Below are positions 1,661 to 16,353 of a DNA stretch of 64,000 nt, piece by piece; the first letter of the stretch is position 1, and each line of letters begins with the position of its first letter. Origin of the DNA: a virus; the IMG/VR virus record IMGVR_UViG_3300045988_074608. One strand, given 5' to 3'. The translations under genes were made by a program, and so were the position numbers. The notes beneath the pieces are model-generated. The model was not told the origin of the DNA. It made no database searches and worked only from the letters and a program-made list of their open reading frames with translations.

Positions 1661-1719
1661 AATTGGTACACCTGGACAAGTGTATAAACTGTCCTTCTTA
1701 AAAAAACAAAACTATAAAT

Positions 1720-1989
1720 ATGACATTTAAAAAGAACATTTTAGCATCTGATGAAGCACAGTATTTAGATGCTGACAATGTAAAGACTGAACTTACTTAT
1801 CTAAGTAAGGATGGAAAACATGTAATTCTTTGGAAGATTGGTACTAAGTATTATGTTGAAGTAAATACCTATTTTGATGAAAACTTTTGGAAGGGCGCAG
1901 ATAATGCCTTTGAAAGAAGTGAATATATCATTGAGGTAAAAGAACTCACAGATGAAGAAGTTGAAGAATATTTCAAAGAATATGTTTGA
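1720..1989 (+). CDS. hypothetical protein (89 aa)
   Basis: ATG ORF, tightly packed with its neighbours. Confidence 0.5.
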   Translation: MTFKKNILASDEAQYLDADNVKTELTYLSKDGKHVILWKIGTKYYVEVNTYFDENFWKGADNAFERSEYIIEVKELTDEEVEEYFKEYV

Positions 1990-2152
1990 AATAAGAAAAT
2001 GGTACGATGAGCGAAAAATAGTAACTCACGTACATAGCTTTGAAGAAGCATACAAAGCATATGTTAACGAGAACAGTTGTGACACAGTACAAGTGTATTT
2101 CTTAACGGGTCCTTTCGAAGCACCTGTTTTGTTAGCTCAAAAAGAACTATGA
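1952..2152 (+). CDS. hypothetical protein; probable start at ATG 1982
   Basis: The in-frame ATG at 1982 overlaps the upstream stop (ATGTTTGA), giving 56 aa. Confidence 0.4.
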   Translation: MKKLKNISKNMFEIRKWYDERKIVTHVHSFEEAYKAYVNENSCDTVQVYFLTGPFEAPVLLAQKEL

Positions 2153-2412
2153 AAATAAAAATCACAGAGGTAGAAAGCACAAAAGAAAAGCTTCTACTCT
2201 ATCACAAACCAGAATTCATTATACTTGAAGAAAAAGAACTGAATAATGAAATAAATAAAATTATTCATAAATTTGAAAACAAGTATAATACTAAAGTTGA
2301 TGAAAAAGAATATGGTAAATTTGAAACTGCAATATATTTCAAAAACACCGACAGATTCCTAATAATGTCCTCAATTGCCAAAAATGGCAGAGTATCGGGC
2401 ATTAAACTCTAA
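2149..2412 (+). CDS. hypothetical protein (87 aa)
   Basis: ATGA start/stop overlap with the upstream ORF. Confidence 0.5.
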   Translation: MKIKITEVESTKEKLLLYHKPEFIILEEKELNNEINKIIHKFENKYNTKVDEKEYGKFETAIYFKNTDRFLIMSSIAKNGRVSGIKL

Positions 2413-2428
2413 CACCTAAACACCTATA

Positions 2429-2731
2429 ATGCGTAGCACATGCTGCGCGTTACGGGTCGGAACTTTGGTAACACCATCAAAAATCCACTCAGAATTTTTA
2501 AATCAAAAACATTATCAAAATGGAATTAAAATGAGTAAATTAATGCTATCTTTCACAGCCACATTTTGTGCTACAATGTGTGCTATTCTACTATATGTGG
2601 AGCGTGAAAACTTAAGTACTAGCACAGAGGAGAATATTCTCCTAAGCATAGTTTTTGCGATAATCGCCATATTATCATTTCTTGTATTTTACAAAGAATG
2701 CGATGATTGGTTTCATTTAAATGAAGAATAA
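2429..2731 (+). CDS. small membrane protein; probable start at ATG 2531
   Basis: From MSKLML onward there are two hydrophobic helices and a FYKECDDWFH tail, paralogous to ORF 470-676. Confidence 0.5.
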   Translation: MRSTCCALRVGTLVTPSKIHSEFLNQKHYQNGIKMSKLMLSFTATFCATMCAILLYVERENLSTSTEENILLSIVFAIIAILSFLVFYKECDDWFHLNEE

Positions 2732-2733
2732 AT

Positions 2734-3030
2734 ATGAAAAATGAAACAAAATATCTTATAGTAGATATAATAGGACTTGTTCTTATTATCTGTCTTTTAG
2801 CAATTTCAGTAACTGCACAATGCTCAACTGATAGTGATAACAAGAGGTTAACTGAAATAATTGAGAGACAGAAGAAGCTTATTGAAAAATATAAGCAATT
2901 CGAAGACATATCTGTACAAATCTACATTAACCAAGTAGATAGTACAGGTGATACATTCGATTCTTCCGACGATGGAGTGTTATTTTGGAACACTCTGTCG
3001 GAAATAGATAGTTTGAAAAACTTAAAGTAG
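2734..3030 (+). CDS. small N-terminally anchored protein (98 aa)
   Basis: One N-terminal hydrophobic helix. The ORF ends on TAG (3028-3030). Confidence 0.5.
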   Translation: MKNETKYLIVDIIGLVLIICLLAISVTAQCSTDSDNKRLTEIIERQKKLIEKYKQFEDISVQIYINQVDSTGDTFDSSDDGVLFWNTLSEIDSLKNLK

Positions 3031-3060
3031 TCCCATTCATTTACATTTTAAGTTAGACAA

Positions 3061-3092
3061 AGACTCTACGGTTCGTGAGAATAGTAGAGTTT
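3061..3092 (+). other. GNRA-capped conserved hairpin, copy 1
   Basis: ACTCTAC / GG-TTC-GTGA-GAA-TA / GTAGAGT, followed by TTTT. Confidence 0.6.
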
Positions 3093-3201
3093 TAACCATT
3101 ACCGATGAGTCTTTGAAAATTAAGACGAAACACGAAAGTGTCTAATGGAGCCATATTTTTAGATTTTTACGAATGTGATTCCTTTGTGTAATATCAAAGG
3201 G

Positions 3202-3233
3202 AACAATACTAGTCTGTGAAGATAGGTATTGTT
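3202..3233 (+). other. GNRA-capped conserved hairpin, copy 2
   Basis: AACAATAC(T) / AG-TCT-GTGA-AGA-TA / (G)GTATTGTT. It ends 5 nt before the tRNA-Gln 5' end. Confidence 0.6.
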
Positions 3234-3238
3234 TTTAT

Positions 3239-3309
3239 TGGACTATGGTGTAACGGTAACACAACAGTTTTTGGCGCTGTTGTTCCAGGTTCGAATCCTG
3301 GTAGTCCAA
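3239..3309 (+). tRNA. tRNA-Gln (anticodon UUG)
   Basis: Hand-folded cloverleaf: acceptor TGGACTA/TAGTCCA, D stem GTGT/ACAC, anticodon stem ACAGT/GCTGT, loop TTTTGGC, T arm CCAGG-TTCGAAT-CCTGG, discriminator A. No encoded CCA. Confidence 0.8.
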
Positions 3310-3342
3310 CAACAACTATCACTCCATTCAGGTATATTCAAC

Positions 3343-3368
3343 CCACATGGTCTGTGAAGATAGTATGG
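3343..3368 (+). other. GNRA-capped conserved hairpin, copy 3 (weaker stem)
   Basis: CCACAT / GG-TCT-GTGA-AGA-TA / GTATGG. The stem has one mismatch and one G:U. Confidence 0.4.
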
Positions 3369-3444
3369 TATTATAGATAATTCTATAAGCTTTCATTCTT
3401 AGTTTAGGTAATTTGTTTTTAAATGTTTATATTTGTTTAATTTC

Positions 3445-3470
3445 CTACACGGTTCGTGAGAATAGTGTAG
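3445..3470 (+). other. GNRA-capped conserved hairpin, copy 4
   Basis: CTACAC / GG-TTC-GTGA-GAA-TA / GTGTAG, followed by TTTT. Confidence 0.6.
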
Positions 3471-3590
3471 TTTTCCTTAGGTCTCTATTGAATGTTGTGA
3501 ATAATAGTAGCAATTGGTTAAAATGAGAATATTGCCTGTAGAAACAGGAATTTTGGGCATTAAATTAAATCCTAGCCCAGGGTAAATAAA

Positions 3591-3872
3591 ATGAAAACAG
3601 AGCACAAATCAATTGTAGCAGTTTCAACAGATGGTAATTACGCTGTACGAGCATTGTTTGACAAGAACTATCAACTATGTGATATACAGCCAAGAGTACA
3701 AGGTAAATTTGTAGATGGTCGTTTTCGTAGTGTAACACAAGAGACGCTGAACATGTATCACGGTCAACCTTATGACATATGTCATGACGAGGTACTAATC
3801 AACTTAAAATGGATAGCTGATAATGAAAGAGAAGATTTTGCAGAACCAGGTGAATCCGCCGAAGAAGAGTAA
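3591..3872 (+). CDS. hypothetical protein (93 aa)
   Basis: ATG ORF downstream of the tRNA/hairpin cluster. Confidence 0.5.
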   Translation: MKTEHKSIVAVSTDGNYAVRALFDKNYQLCDIQPRVQGKFVDGRFRSVTQETLNMYHGQPYDICHDEVLINLKWIADNEREDFAEPGESAEEE

Positions 3873-4026
3873 GTGGAACGAAAAGTGCTGGAAAATATAT
3901 TTCAAGCACGATGGATGTTCAATGCTATTGTTTGATAACTTGACAGGTGTTAATGCCTTGATACGTGTAAAAACGTTATCAAGGTTATACAACAGCTGGA
4001 AAGGTAAATTCATTGTAACTAAATAA
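3823..4026 (+). CDS. possible small ORF (uncertain)
   Basis: Overlaps the previous ORF by 50 nt; the real start is unclear. Confidence 0.2.
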   Translation: MKEKILQNQVNPPKKSKWNEKCWKIYFKHDGCSMLLFDNLTGVNALIRVKTLSRLYNSWKGKFIVTK

Positions 4027-4033
4027 GTTAATT

Positions 4034-4267
4034 ATGGAAAAGACAATAATAATGCCTGGACAATTTGTGACATTCGAAAATGCAATATACAAAGCTAAAA
4101 AATGTAAATATCCAGAACAAGCATGTTCTAAATGTGATTTATATAAAAAATGTCCAAATGAACTTAATTTTAAGTGTGGTATGTTTGTATATTTCAAATA
4201 TGTGGAAACTAAGCATTTTCCAAAAACAAGAAGATGTAAAAGAGTTCAAAAAGAGGAGGATATGTGA
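4034..4267 (+). CDS. small Cys-rich protein (77 aa)
   Basis: PGQFVTF..KKCKYPEQACSKCDL pattern, shared with the next ORF. Confidence 0.5.
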   Translation: MEKTIIMPGQFVTFENAIYKAKKCKYPEQACSKCDLYKKCPNELNFKCGMFVYFKYVETKHFPKTRRCKRVQKEEDM

Positions 4268-8263: not shown

Positions 8264-8387
8264 TGAAATCGTTTGAGTATGAGTTAATTATGTAGGACGA
8301 GGGTTCGAATCCCTCCACGTCCACTCTTATTTATATATAAGGGCGTGACCGGTTTTGACTGCATAAGGAAGTAAATACGAGATTTCA
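8264..8387 (+). ncRNA. circularly permuted tmRNA-like tRNA-like domain plus helix-2-like stem
   Basis: 3' half first: TTATGTA-GGAC-GAGGG-TTCGAAT-CCCTC-CACGTCC-A (8288-8323). A 17-nt linker follows, then the 5' half GGGCGTG-ACCGGTTTTGAC-TGCATAA (8341-8366). The acceptor pairs 7/7 with G8343:T8320 as G3:U70. Flanks pair 8288-8294/8360-8366, 8277-8280/8375-8378 and 8264-8270/8381-8387. Confidence 0.5.
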
Positions 8388-8481
8388 AAAATCGATAAAT
8401 CAGAACAATAACATTGTTGACTATACTCACGTAGCGTGAGTATAAGTCCCGACAATTCCTTGAGTCGGTTGGAAGAATAGG

Positions 8482-9789: not shown

Positions 9790-10350
9790 TTGATTATGAA
9801 TACACCCAAAATTACTCTAGAAGAAATTGGGATAATCAAAGATGCCAAAGCTGGTAAAGAATCAGCATTTAATTTGTTGTACCATAAATACAGAAGTTTT
9901 GTAATAGATTTATTAAATCAATACATAAAAGATATAGATGAGTCTAAAGACTTATCTAATCTTGTATTTCTAAAGGTACATCAAAAACTCTCGAAATTCA
10001 AAGACTATCATTCATTTGGAGGATGGTTGAGAATACTAACAAAAAACACTGCCATTGATTATCTAAGGACATTGAAAGATAAAACAATATCTATAGATGA
10101 TCAAGAAAACGGAATACAATTATCGGATATCGGAGATATTGTTGATGAAAATGTTTCTATGACATATGATATGTTAATAGGAATGCTTGGTAAACAAACA
10201 GAAACCAATAGAAAAATCATCAAATTGTATTACGAAGAAGGAATGACAGTATTACAAATCAGTAAAGCGATAAATGTGCCAGTGGGAACTATAAAGTCAT
10301 ATCTGCACAGAATTCGTAATAACCTCAAAAAACAATTAAAACTATGTTAA
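9790..10350 (+). CDS. ECF-type sigma-70 family RNA polymerase sigma factor
   Basis: Region-2-like FNLLYHKYRSFVIDLL...FGGWLRILTKNTAIDYLR and region-4 HTH-like YYEEGMTVLQISKAINVPVGTIKSYLHRIRNNLK. The likely ATG is at 9796. Confidence 0.75.
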   Translation: MIMNTPKITLEEIGIIKDAKAGKESAFNLLYHKYRSFVIDLLNQYIKDIDESKDLSNLVFLKVHQKLSKFKDYHSFGGWLRILTKNTAIDYLRTLKDKTISIDDQENGIQLSDIGDIVDENVSMTYDMLIGMLGKQTETNRKIIKLYYEEGMTVLQISKAINVPVGTIKSYLHRIRNNLKKQLKLC

Positions 10351-12577: not shown

Positions 12578-12979
12578 ATGAAAAAGTTAACAACTATCAT
12601 TTCGTGCTCAATGCTACTAATATATGGATTATTAGTGGGTATAAATAATAGAGCAGATCCTGGTGCAACAGCATATGCTGCGCCAGCGGCACCAGTAATA
12701 GGTGCATTGCCATATGATTTCCAACAGAGTCATATGAAACGTGATACTGTCTATATTACAAAAGACAGTGTGGTGTGCAACTATAAAGAGAGAATAAAAG
12801 AGGTAAAAGTACCATATGCAGTACATGACACGTTGTATGTGCCAGTATTGTATATAGCTTCACCCAAGGTTCGTGAGGAGCAAACCTGTGGTAACTCTCA
12901 ATCCGAGTATATCGTAAGGAAAGCTAGCCCTGAAGATATCGACCACAAAACGACATTCACTCCGGGAGAGAATAGCTAA
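12578..12979 (+). CDS. secreted/exported protein (133 aa)
   Basis: N-terminal signal-like hydrophobic segment and the same conserved leader. Confidence 0.55.
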   Translation: MKKLTTIISCSMLLIYGLLVGINNRADPGATAYAAPAAPVIGALPYDFQQSHMKRDTVYITKDSVVCNYKERIKEVKVPYAVHDTLYVPVLYIASPKVREEQTCGNSQSEYIVRKASPEDIDHKTTFTPGENS

Positions 12980-15034
12980 GGCTATTCAGTCGTAGACATC
13001 TCCGTCAGTACTTATAGTGGGTCTCATTAGCCCATGTACGAAAGAAACTTGATCCGAGAATATGTTAACCTTCTCAAAAGGCGAGATTACTCAAAAGGTA
13101 GGATGAAATGTATTATATGTGAAAAGTATAATATAAGTGGGGAGAGCGTTGTATTAACCCCAACAGCGTTATTGAGAACCGTCTGGCGAATAATGGCTTA
13201 GGAAGACGCGTAAGTCTCAAGAAGAGCAAAACAATCCAGTAGCTAATACTCCTTGTAGTTTTGATGTAGACTACATTGGTAACTGAATACAAGTGTTGAA
13301 ACATATGAAATTCCAAACTTCATATGATACATCATTGCTTAATCTAGTGTTCCACAGCTCCAAACTGTGTATGAAGGGATGAAAATTTTATTAGGGTGTA
13401 AGATAGGATAGAGAAGGACTTAGCAGGTAGTGTGTGAGTCAGATCATACTATTGTCAGTTAGGCTAAGCTACGCAGTAAACGTAGTGTCCAGGGATAAAT
13501 CTGTGCCGTTCGATTCGGCAGCCTTTTGAGCCAAAGAAGGGTCCAGGGATGCAGTAAAGAGTTGAGGCTGAGAAAACTATCTGCTTACAATGAGATAAGA
13601 CCGCCAGGCTTTGGTCGTTTATGCGGTATATAAAAGTAAAATGACTAGATACGTGAAGCAAACTGTATAGCTCCCAGAGTCAGCGTTCATAGGACTGAGG
13701 GCAGGATTATAGTATAAGACATTAGCAATCTTATATTATATGAAATGTGGAATAAAGGTGATTACTTGACAATCAAAAACCACCATTTCGTATTTTATGG
13801 TTTAACATTAAATGCACATTTATAATATAAGCATAACACTCCAGTTATAACCTGAAAATTATAAATGCCTATAAAACATTTACAAGATTAGTATATACAT
13901 ATTCAATATAACATATAATATCTATTATCCTCTATATAAAGAAAAAGAACCATTTGGAATAATGATAGTTATTATATATAATAATAGTGCATATGTTATG
14001 AGTATAAGTAAATATACAAAATCGAGTATTGTAAGGTGTAGGAAAGAAGCTACATATTAAGTTCTAAGATAACATTTATTAACAAAAATTGATGTCCTCC
14101 GTATGGGAACTATACTTCTGTTGTAAAGAAGACCCCTCACGGAAAGTTCGAGTGCCAACCGTTATGATAACCAGTGTAAAGTATACATCCGCAAGTGTAT
14201 ATGTATAGCTAAAGGTAGAATCAATACAGAAAACATAGTAGGCAGCATATTATTAAAATGAGAAATCATACTAGCAGTGCAAAAGCGTATGCCTGTGGGA
14301 CGAACCCACCACGGTCTACACTGTCTCTGTAGGGCGTGAAAATAATATGTGGGTGATAACATGTAAATATGTACAGGGTTGAAATCCCTAATATTCGCGC
14401 ACTATAAACAAACGAGGTTTTTAGCAAGGTTTTCCATCGAATAACCACCGTAGAGTCGTAGATACCCCCTGAAGGCTAGACTGTCCGATAATGAAACGTT
14501 ACTATTGATTATTCTACTCACGTTTAAAAGGAAGAATAGTGGTTGATGCGCCTAAACAGTATCGTAAGACTGTACAGCATCGGGAGAATGTGTTTGTTGT
14601 TATTGGGAAATACACGACCAAGACATTCTCTATTTTATTTTTTTTTGTTGGATAATACACATTATCTCAGCCAATGAACCCTCCGCGATTCCTGAAACAT
14701 CAGAGCGTTGGACGGATGGTGTGTATAAACTTTATTTCAAAAAATCTAGTTTTACTCTAAAAGATTTAGTATGTGATGTACAAAAGGTCATTCAAAGCTT
14801 TCCTATAGAGATATAGGGTTAGTTGTATATACTCATAAGAGGCTAAGCTGTTTCTACCGTTGAAACCCTCTTATGATGACTTACACGGAAAAGCGGTCAA
14901 AAAAAATAAATTGACACCTTTATTTATAAATCTTGAGTATAAAAACTTTAAAGCTTTCTCCGAGCTGAGAGGAGAATAAATATATAATTTATCGTGGGTG
15001 TAATCAAACACGATATCAAATAGGATAAATTATT
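12980..15034. other. 2-kb ORF-free region: two GC-richer hairpin-dense flanks around an AT-rich core
   Basis: No + strand ORF of 60 aa or more. The - strand ORFs are short and overlapping. T-arm-like hairpin TGCCG-TTCGATT-CGGCA at 13504-13520; AT-rich core at about 13740-14060. Confidence 0.6.
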
Positions 15035-15643
15035 ATGGACAATAACAATGTAAATATCAATGTAAGATTAGTGGAAGACAACCGAGTAAATATCAGCAGT
15101 TTTGGTTCGCTTTATGGTAAGCGAATCTTTAAAGCAGTCAAGCTCTCATGTGATCTTGACTTCCAAAAGCGTCTCCGTGATGCAAACGAGAATAACGGAC
15201 TTGTAACTAACCGTGCTCCACAGCGTTATAAGATTGTACCTATTGATATAGTAGGTCTCGATCTTGACAAGGACGTTGACGGAACTAATGTAGTTGTGAT
15301 CAATAAGGGTCGCAAAGACGAGGCTGGCGAGTCTATTGAGGTTCGTTGTCCGATTGACAACGAGAAGTTCACAAAGGATGTTACAACTGAGACTGTAACA
15401 GACGCGTTGAACAAGAAGGATTTTATGACTACATACTTCGCAAACGCAAAGAAGCTTGCTGAGGCATTGAATCCTGCAAATGCAACAGAGATGAACCGTA
15501 TCGATGCTCTCATTCGAGATCTTGAGAAGCAGCGTAAGATGATCCAGGATACATTCGATAAGAATATTTCTGGTGTAAATGATTACTATCGTCAACTCGA
15601 CCAGAAGAAGGGCGAGGTGCGTGTAAATGTAACAGTTGACTAA
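15035..15643 (+). CDS. hypothetical protein (202 aa)
   Basis: Long ATG ORF. The antisense ORFs over it look spurious. Confidence 0.6.
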   Translation: MDNNNVNINVRLVEDNRVNISSFGSLYGKRIFKAVKLSCDLDFQKRLRDANENNGLVTNRAPQRYKIVPIDIVGLDLDKDVDGTNVVVINKGRKDEAGESIEVRCPIDNEKFTKDVTTETVTDALNKKDFMTTYFANAKKLAEALNPANATEMNRIDALIRDLEKQRKMIQDTFDKNISGVNDYYRQLDQKKGEVRVNVTVD

Positions 15644-16269: not shown

Positions 16270-16353
16270 ACCTTCATGGCGGAATTGGTAGACGCTTTGG
16301 ACTTAAAATCCAATGACCATACGGTCGTGCGGGTTCGATCCCCGCTGGAGGTA
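16270..16353 (+). tRNA. tRNA-Leu (anticodon UAA), class II
   Basis: Acceptor ACCTTCA/TGGAGGT (one G:U), D arm GCG-GAATTGGTAGA-CGC, anticodon arm TTGGA-CTTAAAA-TCCAA, long variable arm, T arm GCGGG-TTCGATC-CCCGC. Confidence 0.85.

Follow-up and report, generated by a model that had tools for sequence, protein, structure and literature searches.

Among the large structured RNAs of bacteria and their phages, the closest described counterparts of the element considered here are GOLLD and ROOL. ROOL RNAs have a mean length of 581 nt, with six multistem junctions, three pseudoknots and few invariant nucleotides, and come from rumen and gut samples (Weinberg et al. 2017, PMC5737381); only rRNAs, GOLLD and group II introns are larger, and both GOLLD and ROOL occur in prophage and tRNA contexts (PMC5737381). 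Oligomeric assembly of GOLLD has been seen by cryo-electron microscopy (cryo-EM; PMC12286853). Here, we describe an island at positions 12980-15034 of a 64,000-nt stretch of viral DNA (IMG/VR record IMGVR_UViG_3300045988_074608; the whole stretch is referred to as ‘the window’), which belongs to a crAss-like phage of the family Suoliviridae (the ‘delta’ group). The island is a family-wide, single-copy, non-coding RNA locus of about 2 kb, structured on the + strand and made up of at least five domains.

Like GOLLD (RF01998), which is often found beside tRNA genes, the island is a large, multi-domain, covarying and phage-linked non-coding RNA (ncRNA) of unknown function; it is, however, some 2-2.5 times longer, gives no match to RF01998, and comes from crAss-like phages that infect Bacteroidota, whereas GOLLD comes from Lactobacillales and lake samples. 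With ROOL (RF03087) it shares an occurrence in rumen and gut and phage/tRNA surroundings, but it does not match RF03087, is larger, contains long invariant strands and loops, and occupies one syntenic site in one phage family. The context feature common to GOLLD and ROOL, a phage location near tRNA genes, is thus seen here also.

An earlier, sequence-only reading of the window had proposed a scan with all Rfam models, the ornate RNAs GOLLD, ROOL and HEARO included. All 4,227 families were searched, at the gathering score in the window, at E <= 10 in the island and at E <= 1 in six relatives; neither the island nor the relatives gave a match to GOLLD, ROOL, HEARO, OLE, group I or II introns, tRNA, transfer-messenger RNA (tmRNA), T-box or riboswitch, and no known aptamer or leader class in Rfam appeared at a meaningful score. 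Weak matches to rli53 (27 bits, below the gathering score of 70), SNORD70 and RefA1 were set aside as chance. ARAGORN found no tRNA or tmRNA inside the island, only an isolated T-arm-like hairpin (5 bp and UUCGAUU).

Many group I introns have been reported in delta-group crAss-like phages (PMC7886860), which would speak for the decayed remnant of a self-splicing group I or II intron, or of some other mobile RNA that has lost its open reading frame (ORF). Against this, the window (E <= 10) and the six relatives (E <= 1) are both free of matches to intron models, the flanking ORFs are separate, complete genes and not exons, and the element sits at one syntenic site in every lineage, in single copy and without an endonuclease or reverse transcriptase ORF. 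A sequence in the relatives, AUAUAGUCC, bears what we take to be a resemblance to the group I ‘S’ element; even so, we regard an intron origin as scarcely credible.

The element is undescribed in the searchable literature on crAss-like phages (Crassvirales) and ncRNA, and the island goes unmentioned in the account of crAss-like genome features by Yutin et al. 2021 (PMC7886860). A survey of phage intergenic regions in IMG/VR, which like the present work relied on covariation, reported 8,495 candidate structured RNAs (csRNAs) of 29-151 nt, with a mean of 67 (Fremin et al. 2023, PMC10690425); single hairpins of the island may be among these, but none of the candidates is described as part of a kilobase-scale unit, and the term ‘crAss’ has 0 occurrences in that paper. 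The island matches no Rfam family, and we propose, as our best reading, that it represents a new multi-domain family of phage ncRNA.

Conservation, covariation and coding potential

The island lies between an upstream stop codon (at 12979) and a downstream ATG (at 15035), with + strand genes on both sides. It had been picked out as an ORF-free island in a one-directional gene array, and this description stands: the longest stop-free run is 82-92 aa in the standard code, as compared to 87 +/- 19 aa for shuffles of the same sequence, and reading TAG, TGA or TAA as sense yielded nothing convincing within the island. Its flanks are indeed richer in GC, with values of 0.405 at 13000-13700 (98th percentile of the window, for which the mean is 0.32) and 0.386 at 14090-14900 (95th percentile). 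The centre (13740-14060) has a GC content of just 0.237 (0.5th percentile), making it the most AT-rich stretch of its size in the window; the ATATAA-type repeats also claimed for it proved to be short two-copy matches, with no tandem repeats.

An unannotated gap of 2.0-2.2 kb with the same flanking genes (upstream a sigma-factor gene and a gene of ~480 aa, downstream genes of ~200 and ~180 aa) is found in cr130_1, cr131_1, cr7_1, cr124_1, cr272_1/cr273_1, Bohxovirus and Dulem virus 42 (Oafivirinae or related), and at the same syntenic position in the Loutivirinae cr4_1 and cr53_1; 7 Oafivirinae genera and 2 Loutivirinae genera thus carry the gap, with an overall length of ~2.0-2.5 kb. A 17-nt invariant motif retrieved at least 120 IMG/VR loci and, among the matches listed, 113 of 120 are true homologues: the whole island is recognisable in 45, and 49 more distant ones retain the 5' module together with collinear central and 3' pieces. 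Long, ORF-poor gaps, mostly of 2.0-2.5 kb, were present in all 28 distant IMG/VR loci with enough flanking sequence. With a second motif 119 metagenome loci were found (108 true homologues, from human gut, rumen and other sources), bringing the total to more than 200 metagenomic contigs. By comparison, a motif scan of bacterial and archaeal genomes returned, among the 120 matches listed, 119 chance hits and 1 true one, a phage contig in a metagenome-assembled genome (MAG) of Segatella copri.

This contig, JAJWOH010000001.1 (101,563 nt), is a complete crAss-like phage genome with the island on the - strand (1663-4040 of the extracted locus, L135); its binning with Segatella copri gives a weak hint as to the host genus. 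A second unusual record, AUXO011908612.1 (2,251 nt), is a whole metagenome contig that runs from the start of the M1 core described below (window-equivalent 13046) to just before the downstream ATG. It probably arose when the assembler collapsed this segment, which is better conserved than the sequence on either side, although it might conceivably derive from a transcript. More generally, the ends of metagenome contigs proved uninformative as to where transcripts end.

Poor conservation, which the sequence-only reading had allowed for, is the reverse of what is observed: across 28 representatives of <97% identity, conservation per 20-nt bin is 0.6-0.9 in the island and 0.3-0.5 in the flanking coding sequences (CDS). 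The island is also single-copy in each genome, and our covariance model, R1, found exactly one full-length copy in 64/64 sources, at 48-160 bits.

Comparative covariation in related phages, a further check that had been suggested, carries most of the weight of our argument. Sliding AlifoldZ windows on the 28-representative alignment, scored against column-shuffled alignments, gave + strand z values between -4 and -10 in nearly all windows across 12992-15046; the one window that appeared unstructured (14518-14704) was an alignment artefact, with a conserved long hairpin hidden there. Following local realignment, done before pairs were counted, ~168 base pairs with double compensatory changes were seen on the + strand. 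The locus folds as a chain of at least five independent, covariation-supported domains, with ~45 supported helices, at least one H-type pseudoknot, a T-loop and several invariant loops. Three of the modules were tested individually against shuffled alignments and against controls in which the structure was slid along the alignment:

M1 core: multi-subfamily covariance-model alignment, 57 distinct sequences and 29 pairs; 90.7% of cells paired vs 64.9% shuffled; pairs with double changes 28/29 vs 21.5 shuffled; double-change cells 404 vs 119; slid controls <=47.5%
M2 core with its pseudoknot: alignment A8, 26 sequences and 55 pairs; 88.9% paired vs 77.7% shuffled; pairs with double changes 26/55 vs 20.4; double-change cells 156 vs 53; slid controls 36-43%
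M4: alignment A4, 27 sequences and 44 pairs; 92.5% paired vs 79.2% shuffled; covariation score 0.383 vs 0.173; pairs with double changes 32/44 vs 18.6 (reached in 0/500 shuffles); double-change cells 150 vs 45.7; slid controls 20-52%

For all three, 0/500 shuffles reached the observed percentage paired, number of double-change cells or covariation score. These figures should be read with some care. The M1 alignment, being fitted to a covariance model, favours its own structure, but A4 and A8, made with MAFFT alone, lead to the same conclusion; structures were taken from RNAalifold on the same alignments as were used for counting, which the shuffle and slide controls mitigate; and kinship among the sequences inflates the significance from shuffling, but the slid controls retain that kinship and still collapse. 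On a mixed-clade MAFFT alignment (A3), RNAalifold recovered just 2 helices because stems were misaligned, and the covariance model R1 was used instead.

Several lines of evidence place the structure on the + strand. Consensus folding is more favourable on the + strand, at -288 kcal/mol for the whole against -240 for the - strand, and in the core at -39.5 against -22.2 and -47.2 against -26.8 kcal/mol; counts of G:U against A:C in clean hairpins were 33:0, 42:0, 33:0 and 57:3; and a strand-neutral selection of helices gave 22 G:U vs 8 A:C (a stricter version of this search, the relaxed one having been discarded, as conserved columns produced too many false helices). Furthermore, the T-loop (UUCGAUU) and the helix close to the downstream ribosome-binding site (RBS) make sense on the + strand only. 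Such strand-asymmetric tolerance of G:U, alongside compensatory change, indicates selection on RNA, and not on duplex DNA. Taken with family-wide conservation and the non-coding nature of the island, the ~168 double-change pairs strongly support one of the two explanations put forward in the sequence-only reading, namely one or two large structured ncRNAs.

The same reading had left room for a gene in a code that it had not considered. A hidden protein-coding gene, either on the minus strand or in an alternative code, might be suspected from stop-free minus-strand stretches of 120-200 aa in several relatives (window-equivalent 13300-13680), annotated as genes in two GenBank records, and from the use of TAG as sense in the late genes of the phage: the minus-strand late block of the window (29001-64000) is TAG-recoded, with ORFs of 5,957 and 1,714 aa when TAG is read as sense vs a maximum of 510 aa in the standard code. 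But the + strand early block, which holds the island, reads the standard code, and the minus-strand frame is stop-free in only 2/28 representatives (7/28 if TAG is read as sense, 6/28 if TGA is); in the window, even the best frame is broken by 6 stops, and indels among the ‘intact’ copies are mostly of 1, 2, 4 or 17 nt, i.e. not multiples of three. The scarcity of minus-strand stops is explained by the purine-rich + strand. No frame is conserved under any code, and we consider a hidden gene about as improbable as an intron. A search for a suppressor tRNA in the window found none, only tRNA-Gln (UUG) and tRNA-Leu (UAA).

Annotated CDS do nonetheless occur inside homologous islands: hypothetical proteins KNV53_gp52 in cr7_1 (3264-3746 of locus L002) and ECCNAKDA_00150 in Bohxovirus (3286-3792 of L005), and 13 tiny CDS in Dulem virus 42 (2928-4936 of L004). 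With frames that are not conserved, these are in all likelihood false gene predictions, made on a minus strand rich in pyrimidines.

The second explanation put forward in the sequence-only reading was a replication origin, with structured arms around an AT-rich unwinding core, the transcript of which might prime DNA synthesis as in ColE1 RNA II or T4/T7. The island belongs to the replication-gene block, with DNA polymerase ~4 kb further downstream, and this location and the exceptionally AT-rich centre would fit such a role. This AT-richness is nevertheless lineage-specific (GC 0.24 in the window vs a median of 0.33 in the 28 relatives), and the centre carries covarying RNA hairpins; the island holds no iterons or tandem repeats, merely short two-copy repeats; and the G:U asymmetry and compensatory changes point to selection on RNA. 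GC-skew, another of the suggested checks, was analysed in cr130_1, where the cumulative minimum (~70 kb) and maximum (~6 kb) fall at the divergence and convergence of gene blocks, respectively, and the island (86.5-88.5 kb) sits mid-block, ~16 kb away, without being among the most AT-rich windows of that genome. Saying this, skew is confounded with the direction of transcription and is weak evidence on its own. The negative results for repeats, AT content and skew, combined with RNA-type covariation in the centre, leave the origin reading unsupported and, in our estimation, very improbable; we regard the coding, origin and intron readings as effectively excluded.

Domain architecture of the island

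The 5' half of the island comprises a leading hairpin and two domains, with features as follows:

13008-13041, + strand: P1 hairpin, ~30 nt past the upstream stop; outer stem 13008-11/13036-39, inner stem 13017-22/13030-35
13023-29: P1 loop, a conserved 7-nt CUCAUUA
13046-13295, + strand: domain 1, with six helices in its core, and 3' hairpins
13046-13196, + strand: M1 core, the most widely conserved module; P2 13052-55/13101-04, then 13063-64/13092-93, P2a 13069-72/13078-81, P3 13109-18/13126-35, P4 13139-42/13159-62 and P5 13169-73/13189-93
13174-88: P5 loop, an invariant 15-nt GAGAACCGUCUGGNG, closed by P5
13146-13209, + strand: candidate pseudoknot between the P4 loop, GCGU(U) at 13146-50, and (G)ACGC at 13205-09
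13214-13295, + strand: 3' part of domain 1, hairpins 13214-18/13224-27 and 13250-56/13269-75
13336-13730, + strand: domain 2, hairpins 13342-45/13377-80, 13353-57/13365-69 and 13468-74/13480-86; T-loop hairpin 13504-08/13516-20 (loop UUCGAUU); hairpin 13523-27/13537-41; H-type pseudoknot, with stem S1 13600-04/13623-27 crossed by stem S2 13614-20/13639-45; hairpins 13649-53/13664-68 and 13677-81/13693-97

All 6/6 pairs of the P1 inner stem covary (94% paired; G:U 33 vs A:C 0), and covariation of the outer stem is visible by eye in alignment A3, as GUAC, GUUCC/GGAAC and GUCUC/GAGAC. In domain 1, the pairing between the P4 loop and the downstream strand is 91% paired, with 2 covarying pairs across the 28 representatives, and the variants GCG/CGC, GUG/CAC and GGG/CCC can be seen in A3; we put it forward as a candidate loop-to-downstream pseudoknot. 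Of the two 3' hairpins, 13250-56/13269-75 has 7/7 covarying pairs and 13214-18/13224-27 has 3/4; a putative closing helix for the domain (13048-51/13292-95) is weak and lacks covariation. Helices 13499-503/13546-50 and 13605-13/13688-97 of domain 2 are weak also, and pairings that compete with its H-type pseudoknot are 71% and 74% paired, without covariation.

The sequence-only reading had described the flanks as packed with helices, and singled out several by their letters. Most of these have counterparts in the conserved structure: its CTACG...CGTAG hairpin (13468-74/13480-86) shows double changes across relatives at 6/7 pairs, the T-arm-like TGCCG-TTCGATT-CGGCA (13504-08/13516-20) covaries at 4/5, ACCGC/GCGGT (13600-04/13623-27) is 95% paired and forms stem 1 of the pseudoknot, and CTACA-CTGTCTC-TGTAG, in domain 4 (14315-20/14328-33), covaries at 6/6. 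GTGGG/CCCAC is present in the window, within an alignment stretch of variable length that lies outside the scored set. Both copies of GTCCAGGGAT, said to flank the T-arm-like hairpin, exist, but only the second is conserved; likewise CATAAGAG/CTCTTATG is present in the window (as inverted repeat I9) but is unaligned across the relatives.

Two short, conserved strands of domain 1 recur in domain 4: AAAGGUAGGAUGAA (13094-13107) resembles AAAGGUAGAAUCAA (14211-14224), and GUGAAAAGUAUA (13119-13130) resembles GUGUAAAGUAUA (14174-14185). This could reflect a shared motif, an ancient internal duplication or chance.

The 3' half contains two further domains, a terminator-like hairpin and the region that leads up to the downstream gene:

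13740-14060, + strand: domain 3, hairpins 13759-63/13771-75, 13834-37/13844-47 and 13860-63/13871-74; helix 13922-29/13978-85 with inner helix 13933-57/13972-76 (approximate coordinates, since the window has alignment gaps within the 5' strand)
14075-14410, + strand: domain 4, a nested multi-branch structure of 330 nt; helices 14075-81/14405-10, 14151-55/14399-403, 14160-65/14391-97, 14224-28/14370-74 and 14239-51/14344-58; hairpins 14115-19/14127-31, 14181-89/14195-202, 14315-20/14328-33 and 14375-77/14385-87
14150-61, 14349-59 and 14392-405: invariant strands of domain 4, GAGUGCCAACCG, GUGGGUGAUAA and UAUUCGCGCACUAU, respectively
14449-58/14478-87, + strand: hairpin with inner helix 14464-66/14473-75, then a conserved strand, GUCCGAUAAUGAAACG (14483-98)
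14583-14631, + strand: long hairpin with a conserved apical GGGAAAUAC, then a U-tract (14633-46)
14700-14985, + strand: 3' structured region, hairpins 14769-72/14778-81 and 14850-54/14862-66, helix 14797-800/14840-43; conserved strands CAUUCAAAGCUUU and GGCUAAGCU
14986-15034, + strand: terminal region, helix 14986-96/15021-31, which covers a Shine-Dalgarno (SD)-like AGGA (15022-25) 9 nt before the ATG at 15035

Domain 3 has 16 pairs with double changes and AlifoldZ scores of z = -4 to -9. In domain 4, part of the covariation in helix 14151-55/14399-403 comes from one divergent sequence. The hairpin at 14449-58/14478-87 is 93% paired, with 3 + 3 covarying pairs, and the 3' structured region has 4/4 and 5/5 covarying pairs, with z = -7 to -10.

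In the window, the long hairpin at 14583-14631 has a folding energy of -19.7 kcal/mol and is followed by a U-tract of 14 nt; a homologous long hairpin, of -10 to -20 kcal/mol and with other stem sequences, is found in at least 19/28 representatives, followed by 2-4 nt and then UUUU(U/C)GUGG. A consensus terminator scan did not call this hairpin, because its loop is too long; it is possible that it marks the 3' end of the main RNA. Separately, 12 nt of the U-tract, UUUAUUUUUUUU (14634-14645), are fully complementary to an A-tract, AAAAAAAAUAAA (14899-14910), 253 nt downstream.

The terminal helix (10 bp) is 96% paired, with 7 covarying pairs. An alternative hairpin, AUCGUG (14991-96) with CACGAU (15009-14), read from alignment A1, shares its AUC with the terminal helix, such that the terminal region may act as a translational switch for the downstream gene, which encodes a protein of 202 aa.

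Genomic setting and possible modes of action

The surroundings of the island are rich in RNA genes. A tmRNA-like gene at 8264-8439 (+ strand; Rfam tmRNA_permuted, 62 bits, above the gathering score of 47, E 1.4e-9; not called by ARAGORN) lies ~4.5 kb upstream, and the syntenic locus of RefSeq cr130_1 (82000-82390) is annotated as tmRNA; tRNA-Gln (UUG) is at 3239 and tRNA-Leu (UAA) at 16270, 1.2 kb downstream of the island. This tRNA/tmRNA layout is repeated in cr130_1, and the proximity of tRNA-Leu and the tmRNA parallels the tRNA/prophage context of GOLLD and ROOL. A sigma-70-family/ECF-like gene (ECF, extracytoplasmic function) at 9790-10347 (+ strand; PHROG 1740, E 1.5e-21), ~2.6 kb upstream, is syntenic with the island in all relatives and may direct transcription of the early block. 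Directly downstream of the island come the genes for the 202-aa protein and a protein of 175 aa. The former has 95 homologues, all unnamed and from phages; its AlphaFold2 model is of medium confidence (pLDDT 78), with an alpha/beta domain and one long helix, and a Foldseek search of this model against the PDB gave no significant fold match (best E 0.49).

Synthesising these findings, we propose that the island is a conserved ncRNA locus of Suoliviridae, in which the 5' ~1.6 kb acts in trans as an ornate RNA and the last ~50 nt act in cis; we would put the probability of this reading at roughly 0.6. The locus would be transcribed rightward, from the + strand, together with the early/replication block that holds the tmRNA, tRNAs and sigma factor. 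The segment from 13008 to ~14646, ending at the terminator-like hairpin, may then serve as a scaffold akin to GOLLD and ROOL, with RNA-RNA or RNA-protein assembly during infection putatively taking place through contacts at the invariant loops, whilst the terminal helix would hide the RBS of the 202-aa gene.

A number of observations weigh against this proposal. The case for a scaffold that acts in trans is purely one of analogy. No sigma-70 or Bacteroidetes-type (TAnnTTTG) promoter is enriched, or conserved in position, in the island, and comparison of the flanking proteins with PHROGs, Pfam and PDB sequences gave no functional lead. The canonical U-tract is confined to the lineage of the window, with 4-5 nt after a 2-4 nt spacer elsewhere. 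When the window sequence is folded alone, its energy is close to that of dinucleotide shuffles (z = -0.27 for 13003-13730 and z = -1.29 for 14070-14650); structure is thus unprovable from one sequence, and the impression of flanks packed with helices finds its proof in the comparison of relatives. Finally, covarying helices that would join one domain to another across more than ~400 nt are absent, which means that the island could be several RNAs or one long leader.

The first of these possibilities, a cluster of separate small to medium ncRNAs in which each domain (M1, M2, M3, M4 and the 3' region) is its own gene or a processed product, much as in a tRNA cluster, gains from this absence of long-range pairing, and also from the ability of each domain to fold alone, the dips in conservation and variable-length insertions between domains, and the far better conservation of the M1 core than of the rest in distant clades. 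On the other hand, the domains always occur together and in the same order, with no promoter- or terminator-like signals between them and, at the loci examined, no ORF, tRNA or other gene inserted. We find such a cluster doubtful. That all domains belong to a single RNA of ~1.6-2.0 kb and form one ornate particle, possibly an RNA-only or ribonucleoprotein assembly like the GOLLD and ROOL cages, is an idea we would advance tentatively, by analogy with those systems.

The other possibility is that the whole 2 kb is a giant cis-acting leader, the untranslated 5' portion of an operon that takes in the 202-aa gene, the 175-aa gene and those beyond, and that it controls their transcription elongation or translation. 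The island runs right up to the start codon of the 202-aa gene, the SD-like AGGA is masked by the final helix, in which 7 pairs covary, the 3' element can still be recognised in a distant clade, and most lineages lack a conserved canonical-U-tract terminator before the gene. Operators such as the leader pseudoknot of phage T4 gene 32 similarly hide an RBS, a classic layout for repression or autoregulation of translation, but the likeness is limited to the last ~50 nt of the island, which bears no sequence relation to known operators. Known bacterial and phage leaders are typically far below 2 kb with ~45 conserved helices and invariant loops; nor does the island match any riboswitch, T-box or leader family, and the hairpin and 14-nt U-tract of the window would end most transcripts ~390 nt before the gene. 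A leader spanning the entire island is, in our view, unlikely, and we favour the division proposed above, of a main RNA acting in trans and a short terminal element acting in cis.

Implications for crAss-like phages

Large, intricate RNAs are very rare in bacteria and phages, and those that are known have repeatedly shown new biochemistry. Should the island be expressed as one transcript, this would be larger than GOLLD and ROOL, and among the largest structured RNAs of bacteria and phages outside the ribosome and introns. Public contigs with the locus number in the hundreds, their sources being human gut, rumen and other animals, and in these it is unannotated or miscalled as small ORFs, and its recognition corrects the annotation of several public phage records, including RefSeq cr7_1. 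It yields an alignment and model suited to Rfam-style curation, as well as targets of a size amenable to cryo-EM: the M1 core (150 nt), M4 (330 nt) and the full RNA (1.6-2 kb).

For the phages themselves, ~2% of the genome is given over to structured RNA, the use of which now becomes testable. A single RNA of this kind, if that is what the island encodes, would point to a dedicated role in infection, e.g. in host takeover, anti-defence, or the control of replication or translation, and the terminal helix raises the question of translational control of the adjacent gene. More broadly, the resemblance of its context to that of GOLLD and ROOL opens the question as to whether ornate RNAs may be a general phage strategy.

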